A DNA stretch of 64,000 bases from a virus (lineage: Duplodnaviria > Caudoviricetes), in the IMG/VR virus record IMGVR_UViG_2940244548_000002, positions 32,001 through 96,000 of that record. The stretch is one strand, 5' to 3'. The notes beneath the pieces were generated by a model. That model made no database searches and had not been told where the DNA came from. It was given only the letters and a program-made list of their open reading frames with translations. Shown one piece after another: positions 19,517 to 35,900 of this stretch (the stretch's first letter is position 1; each line of letters begins with the position of its first letter). A program made the position numbers and the translations under genes.

Positions 19517-20869
19517 ATGGGATTACTTTTAGGAAGTGGCTCAACTAAGCCACAATACCCCTATGATATGTGGTATGGCGTACAAGGGGATTTTACCAGC
19601 AGGGATTATAAACTTACTCGTGTTGGTAATTTGGATTTACATAAGACTTTGCCCATTCAAAAGAAAATCAAGCGGTTTGTAGAAAACCCTGATGGTTCGG
19701 TAAAGTATTATTTGCATCAAAACGATAGCCGTAAAAAGGAGAGTGGAGCTGCTGCTATCCTTGATAGTACGGATGGAAATGTAATGCTTGAAAAGCCTGA
19801 GTATTATTTCCGCTTGGAGATTGATGGAACAAAATGGCTACGTGCGTGGTCTGAGTATCCGCTGCCTGGCTTTACTAAGATGGAAAGAAAATCTATTTCT
19901 CCATGGTATGCAACTATTGATATAACAAACAGCGTTGCTGTTTCTGGTTGCTGGCTTACATGGGCTGGGGATAATATCGCTCGTGATGCAAATGGCATTG
20001 TGATATTGACAGCTAACGCTGCTCAATTCAGAGGTGGATCTGGAGCTGGTGATGCTGCCAAAGATGGCACATATAATTCTCAGCTTGGTATGGCACGAAC
20101 ATCTATCTCTAAGGCTGGAGTTCGTCCGTTGTGCAAAAATGGTACTCATCATGGAGCTTACAGAGCTTACAATGAGTTAGCCTGGTTACAGCGGTGTGAA
20201 TATGCCTCTCTCCATTGCCAGGACACATATAATGAAACTCTCACTTCTGAGGGCTACAAACAGGGTGGTTTAGGATCTGGCAGTGTTGTGGCTGGAGGAG
20301 AATGGAATACATGGGGAGCTTATAAGCCTTTTGTTCCTTGTGGTACAACTGCTACACTCGGAAACAACACAGGTAAGGTAGCCTACACTATCAAAGGATG
20401 GACTGGTGGAGATAAAACCGTTCAGGTAACATCATACAGAGGCTTGGAGGTTCCATTTGAGTATTTGTATATGTTGGCTGATGATGTACTTATTTATCAT
20501 GGAGCGGATAGATCAACGGCTTATGTGTGTGAGGATCCATCCAAATTTACATCACACTCTGATAGTTCTACAGCAGTTCCTGTAGGATATGATCCTATCT
20601 CCGATCTGCCACGAACAAATGGTTATATCCTCCAGCTTACACATTCAGCTAAAACATACTCATTCCCTGAGACTGTTGGAGGTGCTGCTAATGCTGGAGG
20701 ATGTGATTACTATTATCAACCTGTTACTGATGGTGGTTCAGGCTGGTATGGTGCCCTGTTGTCTGCTAATGCGTCTTCTGGGGCGAGTGCTGGGTTCGGT
20801 TTCCTGAACACGCTTAATCGCTCCTCGTACTCGTATGCGTACGTCGGGTTCCGCTTGTGCCGTTTTTAA
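19517..20869 (+). CDS. DGR target protein (probable receptor-binding / tail adhesin, C-terminal CLec-like fold)
   Basis: C-terminal VR matches TR; ends GFRLCRF; YRGLE.PF motif. Confidence 0.88.
   Translation: MGLLLGSGSTKPQYPYDMWYGVQGDFTSRDYKLTRVGNLDLHKTLPIQKKIKRFVENPDGSVKYYLHQNDSRKKESGAAAILDSTDGNVMLEKPEYYFRLEIDGTKWLRAWSEYPLPGFTKMERKSISPWYATIDITNSVAVSGCWLTWAGDNIARDANGIVILTANAAQFRGGSGAGDAAKDGTYNSQLGMARTSISKAGVRPLCKNGTHHGAYRAYNELAWLQRCEYASLHCQDTYNETLTSEGYKQGGLGSGSVVAGGEWNTWGAYKPFVPCGTTATLGNNTGKVAYTIKGWTGGDKTVQVTSYRGLEVPFEYLYMLADDVLIYHGADRSTAYVCEDPSKFTSHSDSSTAVPVGYDPISDLPRTNGYILQLTHSAKTYSFPETVGGAANAGGCDYYYQPVTDGGSGWYGALLSANASSGASAGFGFLNTLNRSSYSYAYVGFRLCRF
20748..20864 (+). repeat. DGR variable repeat (VR) including IMH
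   Basis: Ungapped 117-nt match to 20935-21051; 13 of 15 mismatches are at TR adenines and the 2 others lie at the 3' end. Confidence 0.95.
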
Positions 20870-20934
20870 CGGGGGCACGGACGGCACTGCAAAAACGATA
20901 ATTGAAATAATGAAAATAAAAGGTTGCAACGGTC

Positions 20935-21051
20935 ATGGTGCCCTGTTGTCTGCTAATGCGAATAATGGGGCGAATGCTGGGTTCGGTATCCTGAACACGA
21001 ATAATCGCTCCTCGAACTCGAATGCGAACATTGGGTTCCGCTTTTACCGTT
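20935..21051 (+). repeat. DGR template repeat (TR)
   Basis: AAT/AAC-rich copy of VR with 23 adenines in 13 codons before the IMH* region. Confidence 0.95.
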
Positions 21052-21195
21052 ACAGGTTTTCCTTGAAAAAGAAAAGAAAATCAGACCGTTGTAACCATGC
21101 CTCACAGAGACTACTTGTAGTCGGCAAAATAATATGAATTAGATCGGTGTGAGTAAGGAATTGAAAGCTCTGATATAAACCAACGGCACATTTAT

Positions 21196-22260
21196 ATGGA
21201 TGAGTTGTATTTTAAAGATAGTAAACGATTAAAGAATATTTATCCATTAGTTTATGAAACATCTAATTTGGTAAGATCACAGTATAATGCACAAAAAGGA
21301 AAGGGCGTAAGAAAGGAAATAACCCGATTCAATAGCAATATCTGTGAAAACTTAGCCCACATATATGATATATTGGAAACTGAGAGCTACATACCTGGTG
21401 ATTATCGTGTTAAAATCATCCAGGATCCCAAAGAGAGAACAATAATGATAGCTCCGTTTTTCCCTGATCGGATCATTCACCATTGTATCATAAATGTTTT
21501 AGGCAATGTTTGGACTAAAGTTTTTATCCCTCAAACATACGCTTGTATCAAGGGGCGTGGAACCCATAAGTGTATGGAGGATATTCACAAAGCTCTGATA
21601 AGAGATAAGAAAGGTACTAAATACTGCCTAAAGATTGACATAAAGAAATTTTACGATAATGTAGATCACTCAGTTCTTAAAAAGATCATCCGCTATAGAA
21701 TAGCTGATGAACAAATGCTGAGGCTGTTGGACAAAGTTATAGATAGTAACGGTAGCGATAAGGGATTGCCTATAGGCAATTTTACAAGCCAGTACCTGGC
21801 TAATTTGTATTTAGCATACTTCGATCACTGGATCAAAGAGAATCTAAGGGTAAAGTATTATTTCAGGTACATGGATGATATTGTTATTCTGCACCAAAGC
21901 AAAGAGTTCCTACATGAACTACTTGATAAGATGGGGCTTTACCTTGGTGCTGAGTTAAAACTGGAGATAAAACAAAACTGGCAGATTTTCCCAGTTGATT
22001 CTCGTGGAATTGATTATGTAGGATTCAAACAAAACCATTACGGAATCCTACTAAGAAAAGGGATTTTAACAAGATTCTACAAGAAATACAACCGTGTGAG
22101 GAAACAGTATAACATCTCCGATGAGACAGTAATTAAACACCTCTTTCCGTCTGAATATGGCTGGATAATCAGATGCTCTGAGGAACATAGTAAATTCATA
22201 ATTAAAAATTGTATCGACAATGGAAAAGCAAAATGTATTAACTATCGGGCTGCTGGCTGA
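21196..22260 (+). CDS. DGR reverse transcriptase
   Basis: LKIDIKKFY, GLPIGNFTSQ (DGR SQ signature), RYMDD. Confidence 0.96.
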   Translation: MDELYFKDSKRLKNIYPLVYETSNLVRSQYNAQKGKGVRKEITRFNSNICENLAHIYDILETESYIPGDYRVKIIQDPKERTIMIAPFFPDRIIHHCIINVLGNVWTKVFIPQTYACIKGRGTHKCMEDIHKALIRDKKGTKYCLKIDIKKFYDNVDHSVLKKIIRYRIADEQMLRLLDKVIDSNGSDKGLPIGNFTSQYLANLYLAYFDHWIKENLRVKYYFRYMDDIVILHQSKEFLHELLDKMGLYLGAELKLEIKQNWQIFPVDSRGIDYVGFKQNHYGILLRKGILTRFYKKYNRVRKQYNISDETVIKHLFPSEYGWIIRCSEEHSKFIIKNCIDNGKAKCINYRAAG

Positions 22261-22654
22261 TGAAAAGCCTGAGGTGTTCTTTGACTTATATAATGGGCAG
22301 GGAACTATTCTATATAACCATAACATTAAAGAGGTTCTGGTTATCAAGGATGAGGATGGAGGAACAGTAATAACAACTGACAGCAAGAAATCAAACGGTA
22401 AGATGTTTCAGTATGATAGTGTTCGGGTGGACTATCCGAAAACTGGAGATAACATCTTTAGCACGTTGATCACTGCAAAATATCCACCAGCAACAGAAAG
22501 CAAATTGCTCAATGAGTATCAATCTGCTGTAATGGGATTGCTGGACAAAAGCCGTAAAAAGCCGTATGAAAATTTCCTCAAAGATCGTTTAGCAATTCGT
22601 GAGCAGATTGAGGCTGATTGTGAAACCTCTAACATCCCTATGGAGCATGAATAA
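22220..22654 (+). CDS. Hypothetical protein overlapping RT 3' end
   Basis: Overlapping ORF in operon. Confidence 0.65.
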   Translation: MEKQNVLTIGLLADEKPEVFFDLYNGQGTILYNHNIKEVLVIKDEDGGTVITTDSKKSNGKMFQYDSVRVDYPKTGDNIFSTLITAKYPPATESKLLNEYQSAVMGLLDKSRKKPYENFLKDRLAIREQIEADCETSNIPMEHE

Positions 22655-23042
22655 TATAGTCGATTTTGAAGATGATCCTATTATTGGATCTGCTGATGGA
22701 GATGATTTGTTTGATTGTGAATATTCAAGTGTTGATGCACTGATAAATGAGGTTATTGTTTTTACAGGAGTAAAGACAGATGTTCAAACTGAAAATGGTT
22801 TGCGAACACTTGTAGCCTTTGGAGAGGGATCTGCACGCTCAGCATTTTTCACAGAAAGCAAAAGATTAAAGGATGTTGTTTGTAATCCTGATCGGGTGTT
22901 TCCGTTTCGTGCTATAATTAAAGTGGTTCGATTCGGCAATAACACAGGATTCAAATTCTTTTCTCCCAGCAGTCCTATCACTCAACAGGACAAAGAAAAT
23001 TTCGATTATTATAAACGTAACAAATATAAAAGAAATAGATAA
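22647..23042 (+). CDS. Hypothetical protein
   Basis: ATG 22647 overlaps upstream stop region; acidic N-terminus. Confidence 0.65.
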   Translation: MNNIVDFEDDPIIGSADGDDLFDCEYSSVDALINEVIVFTGVKTDVQTENGLRTLVAFGEGSARSAFFTESKRLKDVVCNPDRVFPFRAIIKVVRFGNNTGFKFFSPSSPITQQDKENFDYYKRNKYKRNR

Positions 23043-25013: not shown

Positions 25014-25085
25014 GCCCCTGTAGTTCAACGGATAGAATAAGAATTTCCTAAATTTTAGATAGCAGTTCGATTCTGCTCGGGGGTA
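25014..25085 (+). tRNA. tRNA-Arg(CCT)
   Basis: Cloverleaf: GCCCCTG/CGGGGGT acceptor, loop TT-CCT-AA, AGCAG-TTCGATT-CTGCT; CCA not encoded. Confidence 0.92.
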
Positions 25086-25090
25086 CACAA

Positions 25091-25121
25091 AGAGAGCTAA
25101 CTTTCAAAAGTTGGCTCTTTT
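25091..25121 (+). terminator. Terminator after tRNA
   Basis: AGAGAGCTAACTT-TCAA-AAGTTGGCTCTTT hairpin. Confidence 0.75.
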
Positions 25122-25161
25122 CGTTTCAGCACTTTTGTTGCTATAAACGTATTTTTGCTGG

Positions 25162-25194
25162 CAATTGTGGTTCAATTGTGGTTCGTGGTTCAAT
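25162..25194 (+). repeat. Probable integrase arm-type sites (GTGGTTC x3)
   Basis: CAATTGTGGTT x2 plus GTGGTTC just upstream of the integrase. Confidence 0.5.
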
Positions 25195-25217
25195 CCGAGC
25201 CAAATAAAAGTAAAGGT

Positions 25218-26570
25218 ATGGCAACAACATTTAAGGCGGTGGTATTCCAACACCATAAAAAACAAGATGGTACATATAACGTTAAAATCCGTGTTACCCA
25301 TAATCGGCAAAGGCGGTTACTGGCAACAAACATTTTTGTTACTAAGGAGGATTTAACCAGAGGCTTAAAAATAAAATCCCAGAATATACTTGATAATACC
25401 AAAGCCATTATTGATGGCTATATGCGTATTACAGCTACCATTAGCATACAGGTAGCTAAAGATATGAACGTAGATGATGTATTAAAATACATAGATACCT
25501 ACCAAGCTAATAATAAGGTATTCAAGTTGGATTTTATCAGCTATGCCGAAAAAATAACTAAGGAGCTGGAGGATACAGGGCGCAAAGGGAATAGCTTAAT
25601 GTATAAAACTGTAGCCAATAGCTTAAAATGCTTTTTGGGCTATGATACAATTGATATTTCAGAGATAAATGTACAATTCTTAAATGACTACTGCCAGTGG
25701 TTAAAAACCAAGCCAGCACGCAAAAACAGACCAGATAAGGATACTGGCAGGCGTATGCCCTCCCTTTATTTATCCACAATCAGAGCTATACATAATAGGG
25801 CAAAATCAGAGTTTAACGATGAAGATGCTGGGATAATTAACATACCATTATCACCTTTCAAAAAGTTCAAAATACCAGCAGTACCAGTAAGTAGAAAAAG
25901 AGCATTAACTAAGGAGCAATTTACAAAGCTAATCAGCCACCCATACGAGTTGGTAATGTATAGAGGCTTTAATAGGATGAATTTGGCAAAAGATGTTTTT
26001 TTGTTATCATTCGGGCTAATGGGTATGAATGCAGTTGATTTATTTGAGTGTACAAATTATGAGGGTGGTTATTTAAACTATAACCGAACAAAAACCAAAA
26101 ACAGGCGTGCGGATGCTGCACGTATGGTAGTAAAAGTGCATCCAGAGTTAATGCCATTATTTGAGAAATACAGAGATAAAAAAGGGAAAAGGGTATTCTG
26201 TTTTTACCAATATTATTCGGATGCAAATACATTTTCAGCTGCAATAAATAAAGGGCTAAAAAAGATTGGCGAAAAAATAGGGATAGCTGATTTTGAATTT
26301 TATGCAGCACGACATACATGGGCAACTCTGGCAACTAATAAAGTCGGTATTGCAAAAGATTTGGTGCATGAGGCATTAAACCATGTAGATGATAAAATGC
26401 GCATAACCGACATTTATATAGAAAAAGACTGGAGGCGTATTGATGATGCCAATAAACAAATGCTGGAATATGTTGGGTTTAGCAAGGTAAATATTAAGGA
26501 GGAGATATACCAACGGAAGTTTAATAAACACCTCCCAAAAAGAGAGCACCCTATTTTTTCAGAGGAGTAA
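25218..26570 (+). CDS. int: Tyrosine integrase
   Basis: Arm-binding N-terminus, SAM-like domain, R.KT, YAARHTWAT, LNH, IY. Confidence 0.93.
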   Translation: MATTFKAVVFQHHKKQDGTYNVKIRVTHNRQRRLLATNIFVTKEDLTRGLKIKSQNILDNTKAIIDGYMRITATISIQVAKDMNVDDVLKYIDTYQANNKVFKLDFISYAEKITKELEDTGRKGNSLMYKTVANSLKCFLGYDTIDISEINVQFLNDYCQWLKTKPARKNRPDKDTGRRMPSLYLSTIRAIHNRAKSEFNDEDAGIINIPLSPFKKFKIPAVPVSRKRALTKEQFTKLISHPYELVMYRGFNRMNLAKDVFLLSFGLMGMNAVDLFECTNYEGGYLNYNRTKTKNRRADAARMVVKVHPELMPLFEKYRDKKGKRVFCFYQYYSDANTFSAAINKGLKKIGEKIGIADFEFYAARHTWATLATNKVGIAKDLVHEALNHVDDKMRITDIYIEKDWRRIDDANKQMLEYVGFSKVNIKEEIYQRKFNKHLPKREHPIFSEE

Positions 26571-29499: not shown

Positions 29500-31479
29500 A
29501 TGGTTATTCGATTTTTAAGATTAAAGATGCTCAATTTTAAGGGCGTGCTGGGAGAAAGGGAGATAATATTTAATCCTCAATTAACCCAGATATTAGGTGC
29601 AAATCGCACAGGTAAAACAACTATCCCAGATGCAGCCTTATGGTGTTTATTTGGTAGAAACAGCGAGGATAAAGCGGATTTTGGTATTAAAACACGTGAT
29701 AAAAATGGTGCATTCATTCCAGAGTTATCGCATGAGGTTGAGCTATTTATAGAAGTGGACGGCAAAGAGGTAAGCCTAAAACGTTGCTGGGTTGAAAAAT
29801 GGAGTAAGCCAAAACAGCAAGAGGATAAAGTATTAACTGGGCATACAACCAATTATTTTGTAGATGGTAATAAATATACCGAAACAGAATATAAAGAATA
29901 TATTGAGAGCCTTTGCCCAGAGAGCCTGTTTAGAGTAATTACAAACCCTGCATTTTTCCCAAGTTTGGAGGCTGGCAAACAACGTGCTTTGCTTACTAAA
30001 ATGGTTGGAGAGGTAAGCAATGAAATGATTGCAGAGGGTAAGCCAGAATTTATGGCTATGCTGGAAGAGCTGGATGGGCGTACATTGGAGGCTTTTTTGC
30101 AACACCTATCCTATAAGAAAAAAGGGGTAAAGGATGAGTTGGATAGAATACCTATACGCATTAAGGAGCAAAAAGACGAGATAGTAAAAATTACTCCAGA
30201 GGATACCAGCTGGGAAAAGCTGGAGGGTGATATAACGGCTGCTGAAAATGCCATTGAGCGCATTGATGAAGAGGTTGCAGACCGTAGCAAAACTTTGGAT
30301 ACAGACTATGAGGCAAAAGCTACCGAGCGGAATGCAATTAACAAATTGCGAGAAAAAGTACAAAGCATTGAGTTTGAAGCACGCCAAACATACAACAATG
30401 CCAGCCGTAACAGAACCAATGCTATCCGAGAAGCCGAAAACTCTCTACAGGACACAGAAAGAGAGATTAATACCCAGAAAGGCAGAAAAGAGAGTGCAGA
30501 ACGTGCGCTAAATAGCCTAGAGCAAGAAAAGGCTGATTTTCGTAACCGTTGGCAACTAGTGAACGATGAGGAGTTTATTATTAATGATAATGAGCTTATT
30601 TGCCCTACCTGCAAACGTAGGCTGGAGGAAACAGATGTGCAAGAGAAATCTAGCACTATGGAGGAGAATTTTAACCGTACCAAATCGGGTAAAATAGAGG
30701 CTCTGGAGATTGAAGCTGAACAGCTTAAAAAACGTGGCAATGGCTATAACGATACTATAGCCGAATGCAACAAAAAAATCCAAGAACTAGAGAACCTGCT
30801 ACCTGCCAAAAAACAAGCTGTAGCTGATGCAAAAGCCATTGAGTTGCAAAGCGAGGAAAGTATATTGCAAGGTAACACAGAACTGGTAGAACTAAAAAAA
30901 GAGATTGAAACACGCACAACTGCACTGGATACCCCAAATGCTGCCAGTGAGGAGGTGCAAACTGGCATTAACGCTCTAAAGGGAGATAAAAAACAGCTTC
31001 AAGATAAGGTTGATAGCCTTAAAAAGCAACTTTATGTACGTGAAACTATTGCAAACAAAAACGCACGTATCAAAGAGCTGGAGGGGCAAGAAAAAACTCT
31101 TAACCAGCAACTATCCGAGCTTGAAAAGAAAGAATACACTGCACAGGAGTTTACCAAAGCTCACATTGTAGAGCTGGAGGGTAAAGTTAATGCTCTTTTC
31201 CTAAATGTACGTTTTACCATGTTCGACCACAAGTTAAATGGAGCTCTAAAGCCTATTTGTGAGTGTACGGTGGGCGGTGTACCCTACAGTGATCTAAATA
31301 ATGCAGACCGCATTAATGCTGGTATAGATATAATCAATGCGATTTGCCGATTTAACAACGTATATGCTCCATGCTTCATAGATAATGCAGAGAGTATTAA
31401 CGATGTAATGCCTATGGATAGCCAAGCTATTCACCTTATTGTGAGCAGAGATAAAGAGCTAGTAATAATCAACAATTAA
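29500..31479 (+). CDS. Rad50/SbcC-like ATPase
   Basis: NFKG, GANRTGKTT, coiled coil with CPTC hook, FIDNAES. Confidence 0.88.
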   Translation: MVIRFLRLKMLNFKGVLGEREIIFNPQLTQILGANRTGKTTIPDAALWCLFGRNSEDKADFGIKTRDKNGAFIPELSHEVELFIEVDGKEVSLKRCWVEKWSKPKQQEDKVLTGHTTNYFVDGNKYTETEYKEYIESLCPESLFRVITNPAFFPSLEAGKQRALLTKMVGEVSNEMIAEGKPEFMAMLEELDGRTLEAFLQHLSYKKKGVKDELDRIPIRIKEQKDEIVKITPEDTSWEKLEGDITAAENAIERIDEEVADRSKTLDTDYEAKATERNAINKLREKVQSIEFEARQTYNNASRNRTNAIREAENSLQDTEREINTQKGRKESAERALNSLEQEKADFRNRWQLVNDEEFIINDNELICPTCKRRLEETDVQEKSSTMEENFNRTKSGKIEALEIEAEQLKKRGNGYNDTIAECNKKIQELENLLPAKKQAVADAKAIELQSEESILQGNTELVELKKEIETRTTALDTPNAASEEVQTGINALKGDKKQLQDKVDSLKKQLYVRETIANKNARIKELEGQEKTLNQQLSELEKKEYTAQEFTKAHIVELEGKVNALFLNVRFTMFDHKLNGALKPICECTVGGVPYSDLNNADRINAGIDIINAICRFNNVYAPCFIDNAESINDVMPMDSQAIHLIVSRDKELVIINN

Positions 31480-31490
31480 TTAGTAATAAC

Positions 31491-32444
31491 ATGGGAAATG
31501 ATGCCAACAATGCTGGTGGTGCAAATACGCAGGCACAGCAACAAACGCTTACTCAAAACGCAGTAGCATTAAAAAAATTTCAAGAGGAAACAACCGAGCA
31601 GGTACTAGCTAAGATTACCCTCATGCAAGAGGCTGGAGCTATCAAATTACCTGCTAATTATTCGGCTGGCAATGCTGTTAAACTGGGATGGCTTTACCTT
31701 ATGGATGTAAAGGACAGGAATAATAAGCCAGCTGTAGAGGTTTGTACACGTGAAAGTATCTGTAATACCTTTTTTAAGATGGTTATTAAAGGGCTATCTG
31801 TAGCGAAAAAACAATGCTATTTCATTGTTTATGGCAACCAGCTAACTCTACAGGAGGATTACAGAGGTAATCTAATGATAGCAAAGCGGGATACTCCTAT
31901 AGCCGATGTAAACCCACAAGTAATTTACGAGGGCGACAATTTTGTATATACGGTTGATGAAAATGGTTTGTACCAGCTGGTGAAGCATGAGACCAAACTA
32001 GAGAACATTAACATAGACAAAATTACTGGAGCTTATGCAGTAGTTATAAATAAAGATGGCTCGAAAAGGCTGGAAATTATGACTATAGCACAAATCCGTA
32101 ACTCATGGACGCAAGGTGCTGCTGGTGGCAAAAGTGGTGCGCATGTAAAGTTTACAGACCAAATGTGCAAGAAAACAGTTATCAACCGAGCATGTAAAAT
32201 TGAGATTGGCAGCAGCGATGATAGCGCAATTATGGGAGATGATGATGATGTGGATGCAGTACTAGATATACCAGTAGAAGAAAGAAAGAGCGCACTGGAG
32301 CAAGGTACTACAATAGTGGATGCAACGGATATTACCTATGAGGAAGTAAAAGAAACTCCAGAAGCTACACCTACAGCGGAAGCCCCCCAGCCAGAGCAAA
32401 CAGCAAAAGGTACAAAAGGCACACAAAAAGATTGCCCAATTTAA
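31491..32444 (+). CDS. recT: RecT-family recombinase
   Basis: GL...KKQCYFIVYG, YRG, FTDQM.KKTVI.RA.K. Confidence 0.9.
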   Translation: MGNDANNAGGANTQAQQQTLTQNAVALKKFQEETTEQVLAKITLMQEAGAIKLPANYSAGNAVKLGWLYLMDVKDRNNKPAVEVCTRESICNTFFKMVIKGLSVAKKQCYFIVYGNQLTLQEDYRGNLMIAKRDTPIADVNPQVIYEGDNFVYTVDENGLYQLVKHETKLENINIDKITGAYAVVINKDGSKRLEIMTIAQIRNSWTQGAAGGKSGAHVKFTDQMCKKTVINRACKIEIGSSDDSAIMGDDDDVDAVLDIPVEERKSALEQGTTIVDATDITYEEVKETPEATPTAEAPQPEQTAKGTKGTQKDCPI

Positions 32445-32457
32445 TAAGTAGCAGATA

Positions 32458-33189
32458 ATGGAACTAAAGATACTAGGCAGCTCCTCACATGGGAACGGAT
32501 ATATACTGGAGGCAGATAATGAGGCTCTGATTATAGAGGCTGGTGTTAAGCTGCTGGAGGCAAAGAAAGCCATAAATTTCAACCTTTCCAAAGTAGTGGG
32601 CTGCTTAGTATCTCACCAACACAACGACCATGCTGGCAATGCTCTGGAGTATGCCAGTGCAGGTGTAATCGTGCTAGCCTTGCCAGAGGTAATAATAGCT
32701 AAAAATATAGAGCGGAATTATAAAACGATTGAGTTTGGGAAAGGGTACAAGATGGGTAATTTCAAGATACTACCTTTTGAGCTTATGCACGATGTACCAT
32801 GTGCAGGTTTTTTAATTGAGCATCCCCAGAGCGGAAAAGTGCTGTTTATTACCGACACATACGCATGCAAGTATAGGTTTACAGGCTTATCCCACATACT
32901 TATCGAAGCCAATTACGCAGATGATATTTTAACAGATAATATACTGGAGGGTAGATTACCACAAGTAATGCGCAAAAGACTATTAACAAGCCACATGGAG
33001 ATAGAGAGTACAAAAGAGTTTTTGCGCTCCAGCGACTTAAAACAGGTACGCAATATTGTATTACTCCATTTAAGCGATGGAAATAGTAACGAAAAGCGGT
33101 TTGTTGATGAGTGCAAGGCTGTTACTGGGAAAAAGGTAGTAGCTGCTAATGCAGGGATGGTTATACAATTTGGAGCTTTACCATTATGA
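32458..33189 (+). CDS. Metallo-beta-lactamase-fold nuclease
   Basis: GSSSHGN, SHQHNDH, HD, TDT, EANY, SHM, HLS. Confidence 0.9.
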   Translation: MELKILGSSSHGNGYILEADNEALIIEAGVKLLEAKKAINFNLSKVVGCLVSHQHNDHAGNALEYASAGVIVLALPEVIIAKNIERNYKTIEFGKGYKMGNFKILPFELMHDVPCAGFLIEHPQSGKVLFITDTYACKYRFTGLSHILIEANYADDILTDNILEGRLPQVMRKRLLTSHMEIESTKEFLRSSDLKQVRNIVLLHLSDGNSNEKRFVDECKAVTGKKVVAANAGMVIQFGALPL

Positions 33190-33371
33190 GATATTTAACA
33201 GAGGCAAATGCTAAGACTGTGATTGAAGCTCTGGAGGAAAAGATAACCGAGCTACAGCAGCTACCTAAAAAGGGCTTACGATTACAAAATAAGATAAGAT
33301 TGATGCAGATTGCATTAAGTGATTTACAAAAAAATAAAATTAAGAAAAATGGAAGTATTAAAAGCAAATAA
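33186..33371 (+). CDS. Hypothetical protein
   Basis: Coupled short ORF. Confidence 0.5.
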   Translation: MRYLTEANAKTVIEALEEKITELQQLPKKGLRLQNKIRLMQIALSDLQKNKIKKNGSIKSK

Positions 33372-33951
33372 GCAGGAGGTATTAAACTGCTTTAACAAGG
33401 CTGCACAAGGAAGTGATGCCAGAACAATACTAAAGCAACTCTTTGGAGATGCAGTATTTGAGTTTGATTACAGAAGTATAAAAACGGTTGAAGATGCCTA
33501 TAAAGCTATGGGTATAGACCAAGTAAACCCATTTTTCTCTAATACCCCAAAATTCGGGTTGCCATTGCTTGATATGGCTCTGGCTTCCTCTGGAGCTCTA
33601 TTTGATTTGTGGGTGGTATGTGCTGCCATAAATAACGGCAAATGGGTAGACCAAGACGGATGGGGATATTACCCTTACTGGGTGCTATACTCCAAAGAGG
33701 AGATTGCGGAAATGGGCGAGGCTGAACGTAAAAAGCAGAATATTTGCCTCCTTGCTGGTGTCACTGCGCATCATGCGGAGTTTGCGGGTGTGCGTGGAGC
33801 GTATGCGGGTCGTCGTGGCTCGTATTCGGCTACGTATGGAGGTTTTCCCTTGTGCCTGAACGACAGCGAAAGGGCTATTTACTGTGGAAATCAATTCAGA
33901 GAGCTCTGGTTTAAGTATTACGGATTTATTTTAAAGGAGGGGCAAAAATGA
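33349..33951 (+). CDS. Phage early protein carrying a DGR VR-like segment
   Basis: IKTVEDA N-terminal motif; A-poor segment 33745-33855 in register with the TR peptide. Confidence 0.7.
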   Translation: MEVLKANKQEVLNCFNKAAQGSDARTILKQLFGDAVFEFDYRSIKTVEDAYKAMGIDQVNPFFSNTPKFGLPLLDMALASSGALFDLWVVCAAINNGKWVDQDGWGYYPYWVLYSKEEIAEMGEAERKKQNICLLAGVTAHHAEFAGVRGAYAGRRGSYSATYGGFPLCLNDSERAIYCGNQFRELWFKYYGFILKEGQK

Positions 33952-34409
33952 TGTGGTTTCAATGTAAAGTTAGTTACGAGAAGATTGCCGAAAATGGCAT
34001 GAATGTAAAAGTAACCGAGCCCTATTTAGTTGATGCTCTTAGCTATACGGAGGCAGAGGCACGGATTATAGAGGAAATGCAGCCCTACATAAGCGGTGAG
34101 TTTACGATAGCCGATATTAAAAGAGCAAACTATGCAGAGATTTTTAATAGAGATGATGAGCAAGCAGACCGCTGGTGGGAATGTAAGGTAGAGTATATAA
34201 CTCTGGATGAAAAAAGCGGTTCGGAAAAACGTACAGGGGTAAGGATGCTGGTAAAAGCCACTGATTTAAAAAATGCCTATGATGAATTAATCATAGGTAT
34301 GAAAGATACAATGGCTGATTACTGGGTTAAAAACATAAAGGAAACACCCATTATGGATATTTTCCCATACAGTGCGACAACCGAGCAGACAGAGGAGACT
34401 GGTAACTAA
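33948..34409 (+). CDS. DUF4494-family protein
   Basis: WF.CKV.YEK..ENG..KV.E.YLVDALS.TEAEARI. Confidence 0.85.
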   Translation: MMWFQCKVSYEKIAENGMNVKVTEPYLVDALSYTEAEARIIEEMQPYISGEFTIADIKRANYAEIFNRDDEQADRWWECKVEYITLDEKSGSEKRTGVRMLVKATDLKNAYDELIIGMKDTMADYWVKNIKETPIMDIFPYSATTEQTEETGN

Positions 34410-34474
34410 TCAATAAAATGTACCACTGTGCTAGAGAAAATAGTACAGTGGGCATAAAAAGGAGTGATTTTTTA

Positions 34475-35251
34475 ATGAAAGGTTGGATTTGCTTACATAG
34501 ACAATTTCTTAAATGGGAATGGGCGGGTGACCCTAACATGGTAGCTCTGTTTGTTTACCTACTCTTAATGGCAAACTCGGAAGAGGGCTATAAGTGGAAA
34601 GGAATTACATTAAATAGAGGCGAATTATTAACCAGCCTACCTAGAATAAGCAAGGATACTGGCTTAACAATACAGACCGTGCGCACATGCTTAAATCGGT
34701 TAAAATCAACAGGCGAAATAACAGACAAAACAACAAACAAATTTAGGGTAATAACTATCTGTAAATATGGAGATTATCAAGACTTCAACAAAAAGGATAA
34801 CAGCCAAACTAACAGGCAAACTAACAGCCAGCCAACAGGCAAGCAACATCCAACTAACATCATTCAACAAAATAACAATATAACAAGTGATAACAATAAT
34901 AATGATAGTATGAATGATTTAGAATTGATGTTTGAGGATTTTAGGAAAGCCTATAAGGGTACAAAAAGAGGCTTTAAGCTGGAGTTTGAGAACCTAAAAA
35001 AGAAACGCCCGAAAGATTGGCGGGAAGTTGTGCCAAAGTTAATGCCTGCATTGGAGCGATTGATAGAGTGGAGAGAGCAGGCGCAGAGTGCTGGAAAATT
35101 TGTGCCAGAGTGGGCAATGCTGCAAACGTGGATTAACCAGAGTAGATGGGAAAGTGAATTAGAAACAATTAACGAAAATGGAAGCAATAAAACTGGATAC
35201 AATAATAAGGAGAATGGAGCGGGAGCACCAAACTATGACGAAGAGTTTTGA
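34475..35251 (+). CDS. Replication initiator (replisome organiser)
   Basis: GWI.LHR...W.W, winged HTH, low-complexity iteron linker, WINQ.RWE. Confidence 0.8.
   Translation: MKGWICLHRQFLKWEWAGDPNMVALFVYLLLMANSEEGYKWKGITLNRGELLTSLPRISKDTGLTIQTVRTCLNRLKSTGEITDKTTNKFRVITICKYGDYQDFNKKDNSQTNRQTNSQPTGKQHPTNIIQQNNNITSDNNNNDSMNDLELMFEDFRKAYKGTKRGFKLEFENLKKKRPKDWREVVPKLMPALERLIEWREQAQSAGKFVPEWAMLQTWINQSRWESELETINENGSNKTGYNNKENGAGAPNYDEEF
34705..34905 (+). repeat. Probable replication origin: YAACAGVCAA iterons at about 12-bp period plus AT-rich tract
   Basis: Repeats at 34707, 34719, 34731, 34798, 34810, 34822, 34833 inside the initiator gene, as in lambdoid origins. Confidence 0.7.
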
Positions 35252-35900
35252 GGATTTGAGTAATGAGGATGTATATTCTCAACATGCAAACCTTACAATT
35301 CACATAGCAAACCAGCTGCTATTACCACAACGGAGGACATTTGTAGTGGATGATAGGAACAAACAAATAATGCGCTTTTTACTCTATTACTTTAATGATT
35401 GCCCTCTGGCAGAGGAGGTTTTCCCCGATAAGCATTACAAGTTGCACAAAAACTTGCTCATTTGTGGGGATGTGGGTACTGGTAAAACGCTCCTGATGCA
35501 AATATTTTCCGAATATTTGAAATACACCGATAACCCGAACCACTTTCACAACCTATCAGTAACGCAAATGGTGAACTATTATACCATACACAATAACCTT
35601 GATAGGTACACCTACAATGAGGAGAGTAGCGTAGGGTTTCAGATAAAACCAGTAAACATTTGCTTGAATGATATAGGAATTGAAAGCAAGGTACATTTTG
35701 GGATGGATACGAAAGTATTAACCAATGAGTTCCTGCATGCTCGTAATGAGGTTTGGGTACATTACCGCAAACATGGGCACTTAACCACCAATTTATCTGT
35801 AGCCCAGTTGAAAGAAGAATTTGCCGATAGCTTTGGTAGGCTGGTAGATAGGTTCAAAACGTATAACGTAATCGCCATGACTGGCGAAAGTAGGAGGTAA
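35178..35900 (+). CDS. DnaC/IstB-like ATPase (helicase loader)
   Basis: GDVGTGKT, LNDIG, TTNL, RL.DR, G.SRR. Confidence 0.85.
   Translation: MEAIKLDTIIRRMEREHQTMTKSFEDLSNEDVYSQHANLTIHIANQLLLPQRRTFVVDDRNKQIMRFLLYYFNDCPLAEEVFPDKHYKLHKNLLICGDVGTGKTLLMQIFSEYLKYTDNPNHFHNLSVTQMVNYYTIHNNLDRYTYNEESSVGFQIKPVNICLNDIGIESKVHFGMDTKVLTNEFLHARNEVWVHYRKHGHLTTNLSVAQLKEEFADSFGRLVDRFKTYNVIAMTGESRR

Follow-up and report, generated by a model that had tools for sequence, protein, structure and literature searches.

A short adenine-poor stretch inside an early gene of a Caudoviricetes prophage raises the question of whether a DGR has diversified a protein encoded among recombination and replication genes and, if so, from which template. 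We analysed a stretch of 64,000 nt (hereafter the window; C3:78915-142914 of the assembly), to which all coordinates without a prefix refer. We found that positions 33745-33855 (111 nt) consist of 10 A, 26 C, 40 G and 35 T, in agreement with the adenine count of the first-pass annotation, and that the gene holding them is 29% A overall. Upon scanning the whole 64-kb window, we observed a mean of 36.8 adenines per 111-nt window (standard deviation 6.8) and only two regions with 12 or fewer, namely 20741-20880 and 33740-33862, the first of which is the variable region (VR) of a DGR lying within the window, which we denote DGR1.

The second region falls in a 200-aa open reading frame on the plus strand (33349..33951), whose stop overlaps the start of a DUF4494 gene (ATGA). 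After position 33855 there are 31 codons before the stop, so that the segment is internal, as had been described. Using Pfam and PHROGs, we find upstream of this gene an SbcC-like ATPase (29500-31479), RecT (31491-32444) and an MBL-fold hydrolase (32458-33189), together with a 61-aa ORF, and downstream DUF4494 (33948-34409), a DnaD-like replication initiator/loader (34418-35251) and a DnaC-like helicase loader (35178-35900), all on the plus strand, which bears out the placement of the segment between recombination and replication genes. The 200-aa protein matches phrog_11581, a family of unknown function, over residues 1-197 (PHROGs; E=5.3e-29), matches no Pfam family at E<=0.01 and lacks an N-terminal signal peptide. 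It has one hydrophobic helix (residues 76-94, Kyte-Doolittle 1.79), a stretch in which the family consensus contains K/R. Gene order, translational coupling and the missing signal peptide suggest a soluble, early, non-virion protein.

Next, we considered whether DGR1 could be the source of the segment. DGR1 belongs to prophage 1 and extends over 20748..22260 on the plus strand, with VR1 at 20748-20864, its template repeat TR1 at 20935-21051 and the RT at 21196-22260; the RT matches Pfam RVT_1 (E=1.9e-21), and the 450-aa tail-module target of DGR1 has no Pfam match at E<=0.01. The peptide of the early-gene segment and the TR1 peptide (20937-21047) align without a single gap, and NNT codons occupy 10/10 of the TR1 Asn positions (ACT, CAT, CAT, TTT, TAT, GGT, CGT, TAT, GCT, TAT), so that both observations made from the window were reproduced in full. 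The first-pass annotation had also concluded that the in-window TR is not the template, and we find 36 mismatches at non-A positions, which rules TR1 out.

We therefore scanned all contigs of the assembly on both strands with 111-mers, tolerating mismatches where the genome base was A. The candidate itself aside, the top site was C3:158532, whose 15 mismatches are all at A sites (0 non-A), and a third copy was detected at C3:158317; the best chance match had 21 non-A mismatches. Extending the alignment places the template, TR2, at C3:158529-158645, which equals window coordinates 79615-79731 and is outside the window, 45.9 kb downstream of the early-gene segment and 15.6 kb past the window end. 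The segment itself extends to 117 nt (33742..33858, plus strand; residues 132-170 of the protein), in frame and collinear with TR2. Over a 115-nt core, 16/26 TR2 adenines are changed and 0/89 non-A positions (hypergeometric P = 3.5e-13), and all core substitutions fall on codon position 1 or 2. The genome search for a copy differing only at adenines, which had been proposed as a check, therefore yielded one in which 16/16 core differences lie at TR adenines.

Around TR2 we observe a 467-aa tail-module protein, TR2 and a 335-aa RT, in this order. The 467-aa target of this second element, DGR2, shares 48% identity with the DGR1 target and carries the proximal variable region, VR2 (C3:158314-158430), at its C-terminus. 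The RT (L001:15850-16857) starts 119 nt downstream of TR2 and is 52% identical to RT1 (E=2e-129), itself Pfam-confirmed (RVT_1); the IGxxxSQ and YMDD motifs can be read from their alignment. Both VR2 and the early-gene segment depart from TR2 at overlapping yet different adenines, and their mutual differences are confined to A-templated sites. We conclude that 33742-33858 is very likely a true target of the prophage 2 DGR, a remote variable region additional to VR2. The suggestion of a further DGR, placed in the tail region of prophage 2 beyond the window and acting on this gene at long range, was thus correct, an off-window DGR having been predicted from composition alone. The label "orphan" is apt within the 64-kb window, which holds no cognate TR, and does not apply to the genome, which has TR2.

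The likeness between the remote VR and VR2 could in principle stem from recombination or gene conversion between paralogous lectin-like genes and not from retrohoming, and the common 117-nt block with abrupt ends on both sides is what such an event would leave. Gene conversion, however, would copy VR2 and would not give differences from both TR2 and VR2 at TR adenines only; the flanks are unrelated; and in five further phages (Versailles, three IMG/VR phages and BI-TP1) the differences are likewise confined to adenines, each genome having a TR with 0 non-A mismatches. Judged by this mismatch pattern, gene conversion appears effectively refuted, and we assign it a negligible probability. Retrohoming from TR2 is the reading that we carry forward.

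The two DGRs belong to two prophages that lie side by side. The left end of prophage 2 (25014..26570, plus strand) consists of a tRNA-Arg(CCT) at 25014-25086 (ARAGORN) and an integrase at 25155-26570 (phrog_1). ARAGORN identifies tRNA-Arg(CCT) copies at C3:46757-46829, C3:103928 (window 25014) and C3:162486-162555, of which the first two are each followed by an integrase-led phage genome, and the three copies delimit two related prophages in tandem, each about 57-59 kb long. Prophage 2 spans C3:103.9-162.5 kb (58.6 kb) and holds both the target gene and DGR2; in the circular phage form, the remote VR is ~12.7 kb from DGR2 the other way round. At its left end, prophage 1 has 27 nt that repeat the 5' part of the tRNA. 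In prophage 1 we likewise find a remote VR (C3:55991-56107), 43.9 kb upstream of TR1 and with 16 adenine-site changes relative to it, in a gene (C3:55627-56196, ~22.7 kb before the window start) encoding a 188-aa paralogue of the 200-aa protein (30% identity). Because this VR matches TR1, both tandem prophages carry a two-target DGR.

In the BPP-1 DGR, reverse transcription of the TR RNA introduces errors at adenines, and the resulting cDNA replaces the VR. By the same route, TR2 RNA would be reverse-transcribed with adenine-specific misincorporation, and its cDNA would replace any VR bearing the matching 3' homing sequence. Since this intermediate would act in trans, a VR anywhere on the replicon would be writable and distance would be immaterial, so that one TR2 would feed two otherwise unrelated proteins. 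The 3' boundary of the remote VR, IMH-like GGAGGTTTTCCCTTGTGCCT (33838..33857, plus strand), matches the proximal VR2 end exactly. Both DGR2 VRs end CCCTTGTGCCT, whereas TR2 has ...CCCTTGAACCA at the same place; analogously, both DGR1 VRs end TTGTGCC and TR1 reads TTTTACC. These end bases are fixed in every VR, which implies that they escape randomisation. By analogy with BPP-1, the difference between VR and TR ends would be the expected contrast of IMH and IMH*, with a putative role as homing signal.

Downstream of the VRs, our search for a hairpin returned only inverted repeats of 4-5 bp, which are not convincing: CCCTT...AAGGG after the remote VR (33847-33885) and GTGCC...GGCAC after both DGR1 VRs (C3:99770-99800; C3:56100-56135). 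They might correspond to the BPP-1 homing hairpin, but at 4-5 bp they are too short to trust. No ORF lies between target and RT in the region of DGR1 (window 20870-23042) or in that of DGR2 (L001:15526-17670), and no Avd-like gene was recognised. Two small conserved ORFs follow each RT, and the one that was scanned has no Pfam match.

Whether the remote VR is still being written was considered across its family. A word-based search retrieved 102 homologues, whose alignment is nearly invariant save for the AAY-templated codons, the only places of high entropy; close homologues are therefore hypervariable at the same codons, as the proposed comparison of codon positions 1-2 would have it. A profile search of 1.84 billion representatives extended the family to 2,526 clusters (50%-identity clusters; E<=1e-3). 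Using tblastn, six LoVEphage-type records and Versailles cover 94-100% of the 200-aa query. IMG/VR contains 202 relatives, of which we fetched 78, and an adenine-poor 90-nt window (<=14 A) is present in 63/78, nearly all at the same C-terminal place. A cognate TR was present in 3/3 IMG/VR contigs where an RT was found.

An alternative is that the segment is a fossil VR, once written by the DGR and no longer diversified, either because the prophage is inactive or because the segment is a poor homing target. A single assembly gives one allele only, there is no clear hairpin downstream of the VR, and frozen copies do occur: a complete related phage in IMG/VR (58,321 bp, CheckV 100% complete) has a family member with an adenine-poor VR-like segment (L019:2486-2962) and neither a cognate TR nor an RT anywhere in its genome. 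That segment is truly orphan, or a fossil, or served in trans by another element. For prophage 2, however, the RT, the TR and the IMH-like end are intact, and the 0 non-A differences from TR2 over 115 nt imply that the site was written recently when set against the background rate of mutation. Furthermore, in a sister lineage, a 59,019-bp phage recovered from three independent samples, the site differs among the samples while the flanks are nearly identical: there are 13-20 differences per 6.6 kb, of which 11-16 fall within 71 nt of the VR and for the most part affect codon positions 1 and 2. We therefore regard a fossil as unlikely, and this copy of the VR is presumably still active.

The family also includes members that adjoin an RT. 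Six short members (135-138 aa; L080-L083, L067 and L072) lie directly upstream of a DGR RT, their poorest 90-nt window holding 2-3 A in L080-L083 and 6 and 9 A in L067 and L072, respectively; in these six the family is the RT-adjacent target. Separately, in a 1,184-nt metagenome contig (P0094), we observed a homologue whose VR has unmutated Asn codons and diverges after GFPL. The assembly has probably crossed from VR into TR at this point; DGR repeats are known to break or chimerise contigs.

We next asked what kind of protein receives the diversity. One reading is that the product is a virion component, such as an additional receptor-binding or decoration module, whose gene merely lies away from the structural block. 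The VR is shared with the tail-module target, the Versailles homologue is labelled "tail protein" by HHpred against PHROGs, and two-target phage DGRs have been described in which both targets act as receptor binders (PMC10743442). Upon comparing the protein with the tail-module targets by BLASTP and by profile-profile alignment (hhalign), we find that the 39-aa VR alone aligns and that the flanks are unrelated, with no homology of the scaffolds detected. A likeness limited to the VR would also explain the HHpred label in Versailles. Against a virion role there is, in addition, the translational coupling of the gene inside a recombination/replication operon, and elsewhere the family lies beside SSAP/exonuclease, integrase or methyltransferase genes and never in the tail blocks sampled. 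Overall, we consider a virion component improbable and favour an early, non-virion protein.

The genomic contexts of the family are varied, and the recombination module is a common one. Versailles shares the upstream gene order, as does a metagenomic phage of 59 kb. Among the 78 IMG/VR loci, ~11 have the RecT/MBL/SbcC context, ~20 have phrog_3657 and a YqaJ-type exonuclease, and 4 are integrase-adjacent; ~31/78 adjoin RecT/MBL or YqaJ-type exonuclease genes. DUF4494 was ruled out as an obligate partner, being adjacent in 8/78 loci. Relatives of the MBL-fold hydrolase (L005:7099-7830) have a weak precomputed Pfam match to Anti-Pycsar_Apyc1, and the hydrolase of the window matches Lactamase_B families only (Pfam, E<=0.01).

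Structural searches describe a scaffold of mostly helical character. Two AF2 models (pLDDT 73 and 81) give a mostly helical scaffold in which VR residues 136-162 are below pLDDT 50. Foldseek returned no match in the PDB at E<=0.001; a wide VIA-align search with both models had its best hits at Z 4.2-4.9, all to unrelated helical chains, with no CLec chain; and BFVD and the ESM Atlas gave matches to uncharacterised phage proteins only. Searching PDB sequences by HMMER with the family and tail-target profiles yielded nothing significant, and Pfam on ten longer family members, taken as candidate fusions, gave nothing above the cut-off. Likewise, the Pfam domains of CLec-type DGR targets (FGE-sulfatase, DUF1566) match neither the 200-aa protein nor the 450-aa DGR1 target.

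For the function of the 200-aa protein, we tentatively propose, at somewhat less than even probability, a variable binder that takes part, within the cell, in conflict between phage and host or between phages, and that may be tied to the recombination module. Another reading is that phrog_11581 is a non-CLec DGR scaffold, a soluble and mostly helical early protein that shows the tail protein's 39-aa cassette, and that hypermutation could serve to readjust a protein that inhibits host nucleases or defence proteins inside the cell; this we consider rather doubtful. The slot next to SSAP/exonuclease genes, in which the family recurs, is the position of Gam in lambda. If this inhibitor reading were true, the early target would serve counter-defence and not adsorption. 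Bacteroides lysogens of this type would be tractable for testing what a phage gains from hypermutating an intracellular early protein.

Among known systems, BPP-1 has a single RT-adjacent structural target (Mtd) with a solved CLec fold and the accessory protein Avd. The prophage 2 system shares with it the adenine-specific flow from TR to VR, the C-terminal VR and a VR 3' end that differs from the TR copy, but its second target is remote and apparently non-structural, no Avd was recognised and the models match no CLec chain. A further known system is that of the Roseburia phage Shimadzu, whose DGR has VR1 in a tail gene and VR2 in a gene of unknown function, with reads showing that both are diversified and that selection on VR2 is weaker (Cornuault et al., bioRxiv 10.1101/575076). 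Shimadzu is likewise a temperate gut phage with one DGR and two VRs, although its host is a Firmicute.

The genome layout is shared by Bacteroides phage Versailles (ON453897.1, 58 kb), which has tRNA-Arg, integrase, SbcC-like, RecT and MBL hydrolase genes, a family member and replication genes, with the tail target, TR and RT at the far end and a leftward gene block mid-genome, as here. The VR of its early homologue has 0 non-A mismatches to its own TR. The proteins are ~30% identical, and the Versailles VR is of the DGR1 type (GFRLC ending) and not of the DGR2 type (GFPLC); in the Versailles record the gene is labelled "tail protein", and no VR or TR is annotated.

In the Bacteroides phage Quimbyvirus ("Quimbyviridae"), a DGR has a second VR in a small, distal, non-structural protein (Benler et al. 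2021, PMC8008677). In both cases one DGR has a VR in the RT-adjacent tail-module gene and a VR in a far, small, non-structural protein. A homologue of the 200-aa protein is encoded by gp84 of the LoVEphage-type phage BI-TP1 (PQ571265.1; 33.9% identity over 94% of the query, E=7e-14), and the gp84 VR has 0 non-A mismatches over 80 nt to a TR near a frameshifted RT. The BI-TP1 RT gives two separate RVT_1 matches that lie in different frames (PQ571265.1:5332-5917; L091, L092), in agreement with the frameshifted RT reported for Quimbyvirus. The surroundings of gp84 include several methyltransferases, a tRNA ligase and an upstream uncharacterised TIGR02757-family gene, for which neither a nuclease nor a glycosylase was called; next to gp84 no nuclease is annotated. 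Both this neighbourhood and the split RT match the description of ORF 80/84 (PMC8008677), and we infer that BI-TP1 gp84 is Quimbyvirus ORF 84 and thus of the same family; we found no paper that links the names Quimbyvirus and LoVEphage. Unlike its Quimbyvirus counterpart, the prophage 2 gene belongs to an operon of RecT/MBL-hydrolase and replication-loader genes in a Versailles-like siphophage of 58 kb and is not part of a methyltransferase island; the prophage 2 RT is a single ORF.

Additionally, four species of gut prophage have been reported in which a second VR lies at a distance (Nature 2025, PMC12629997). They resemble the present case in being Bacteroidota prophages with a remote VR in a non-tail gene, found by a TR search of the genome, and differ in that their second VR lies near counter-defence genes, e.g. 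a DNA methyltransferase. Distal non-structural DGR targets are accordingly a kind already published (Benler 2021; Nature 2025). To these the present analysis adds a family of thousands of 50%-identity clusters, often placed in recombination modules, in which the VR cassette is the sole overlap with the tail target and in which RT-adjacent and truly orphan members both occur. Overall, prophage 2 is a new, well-documented member of the two-target class in a different genomic context, one of two tandem prophages that each have their own TR serving a tail gene and an early gene.
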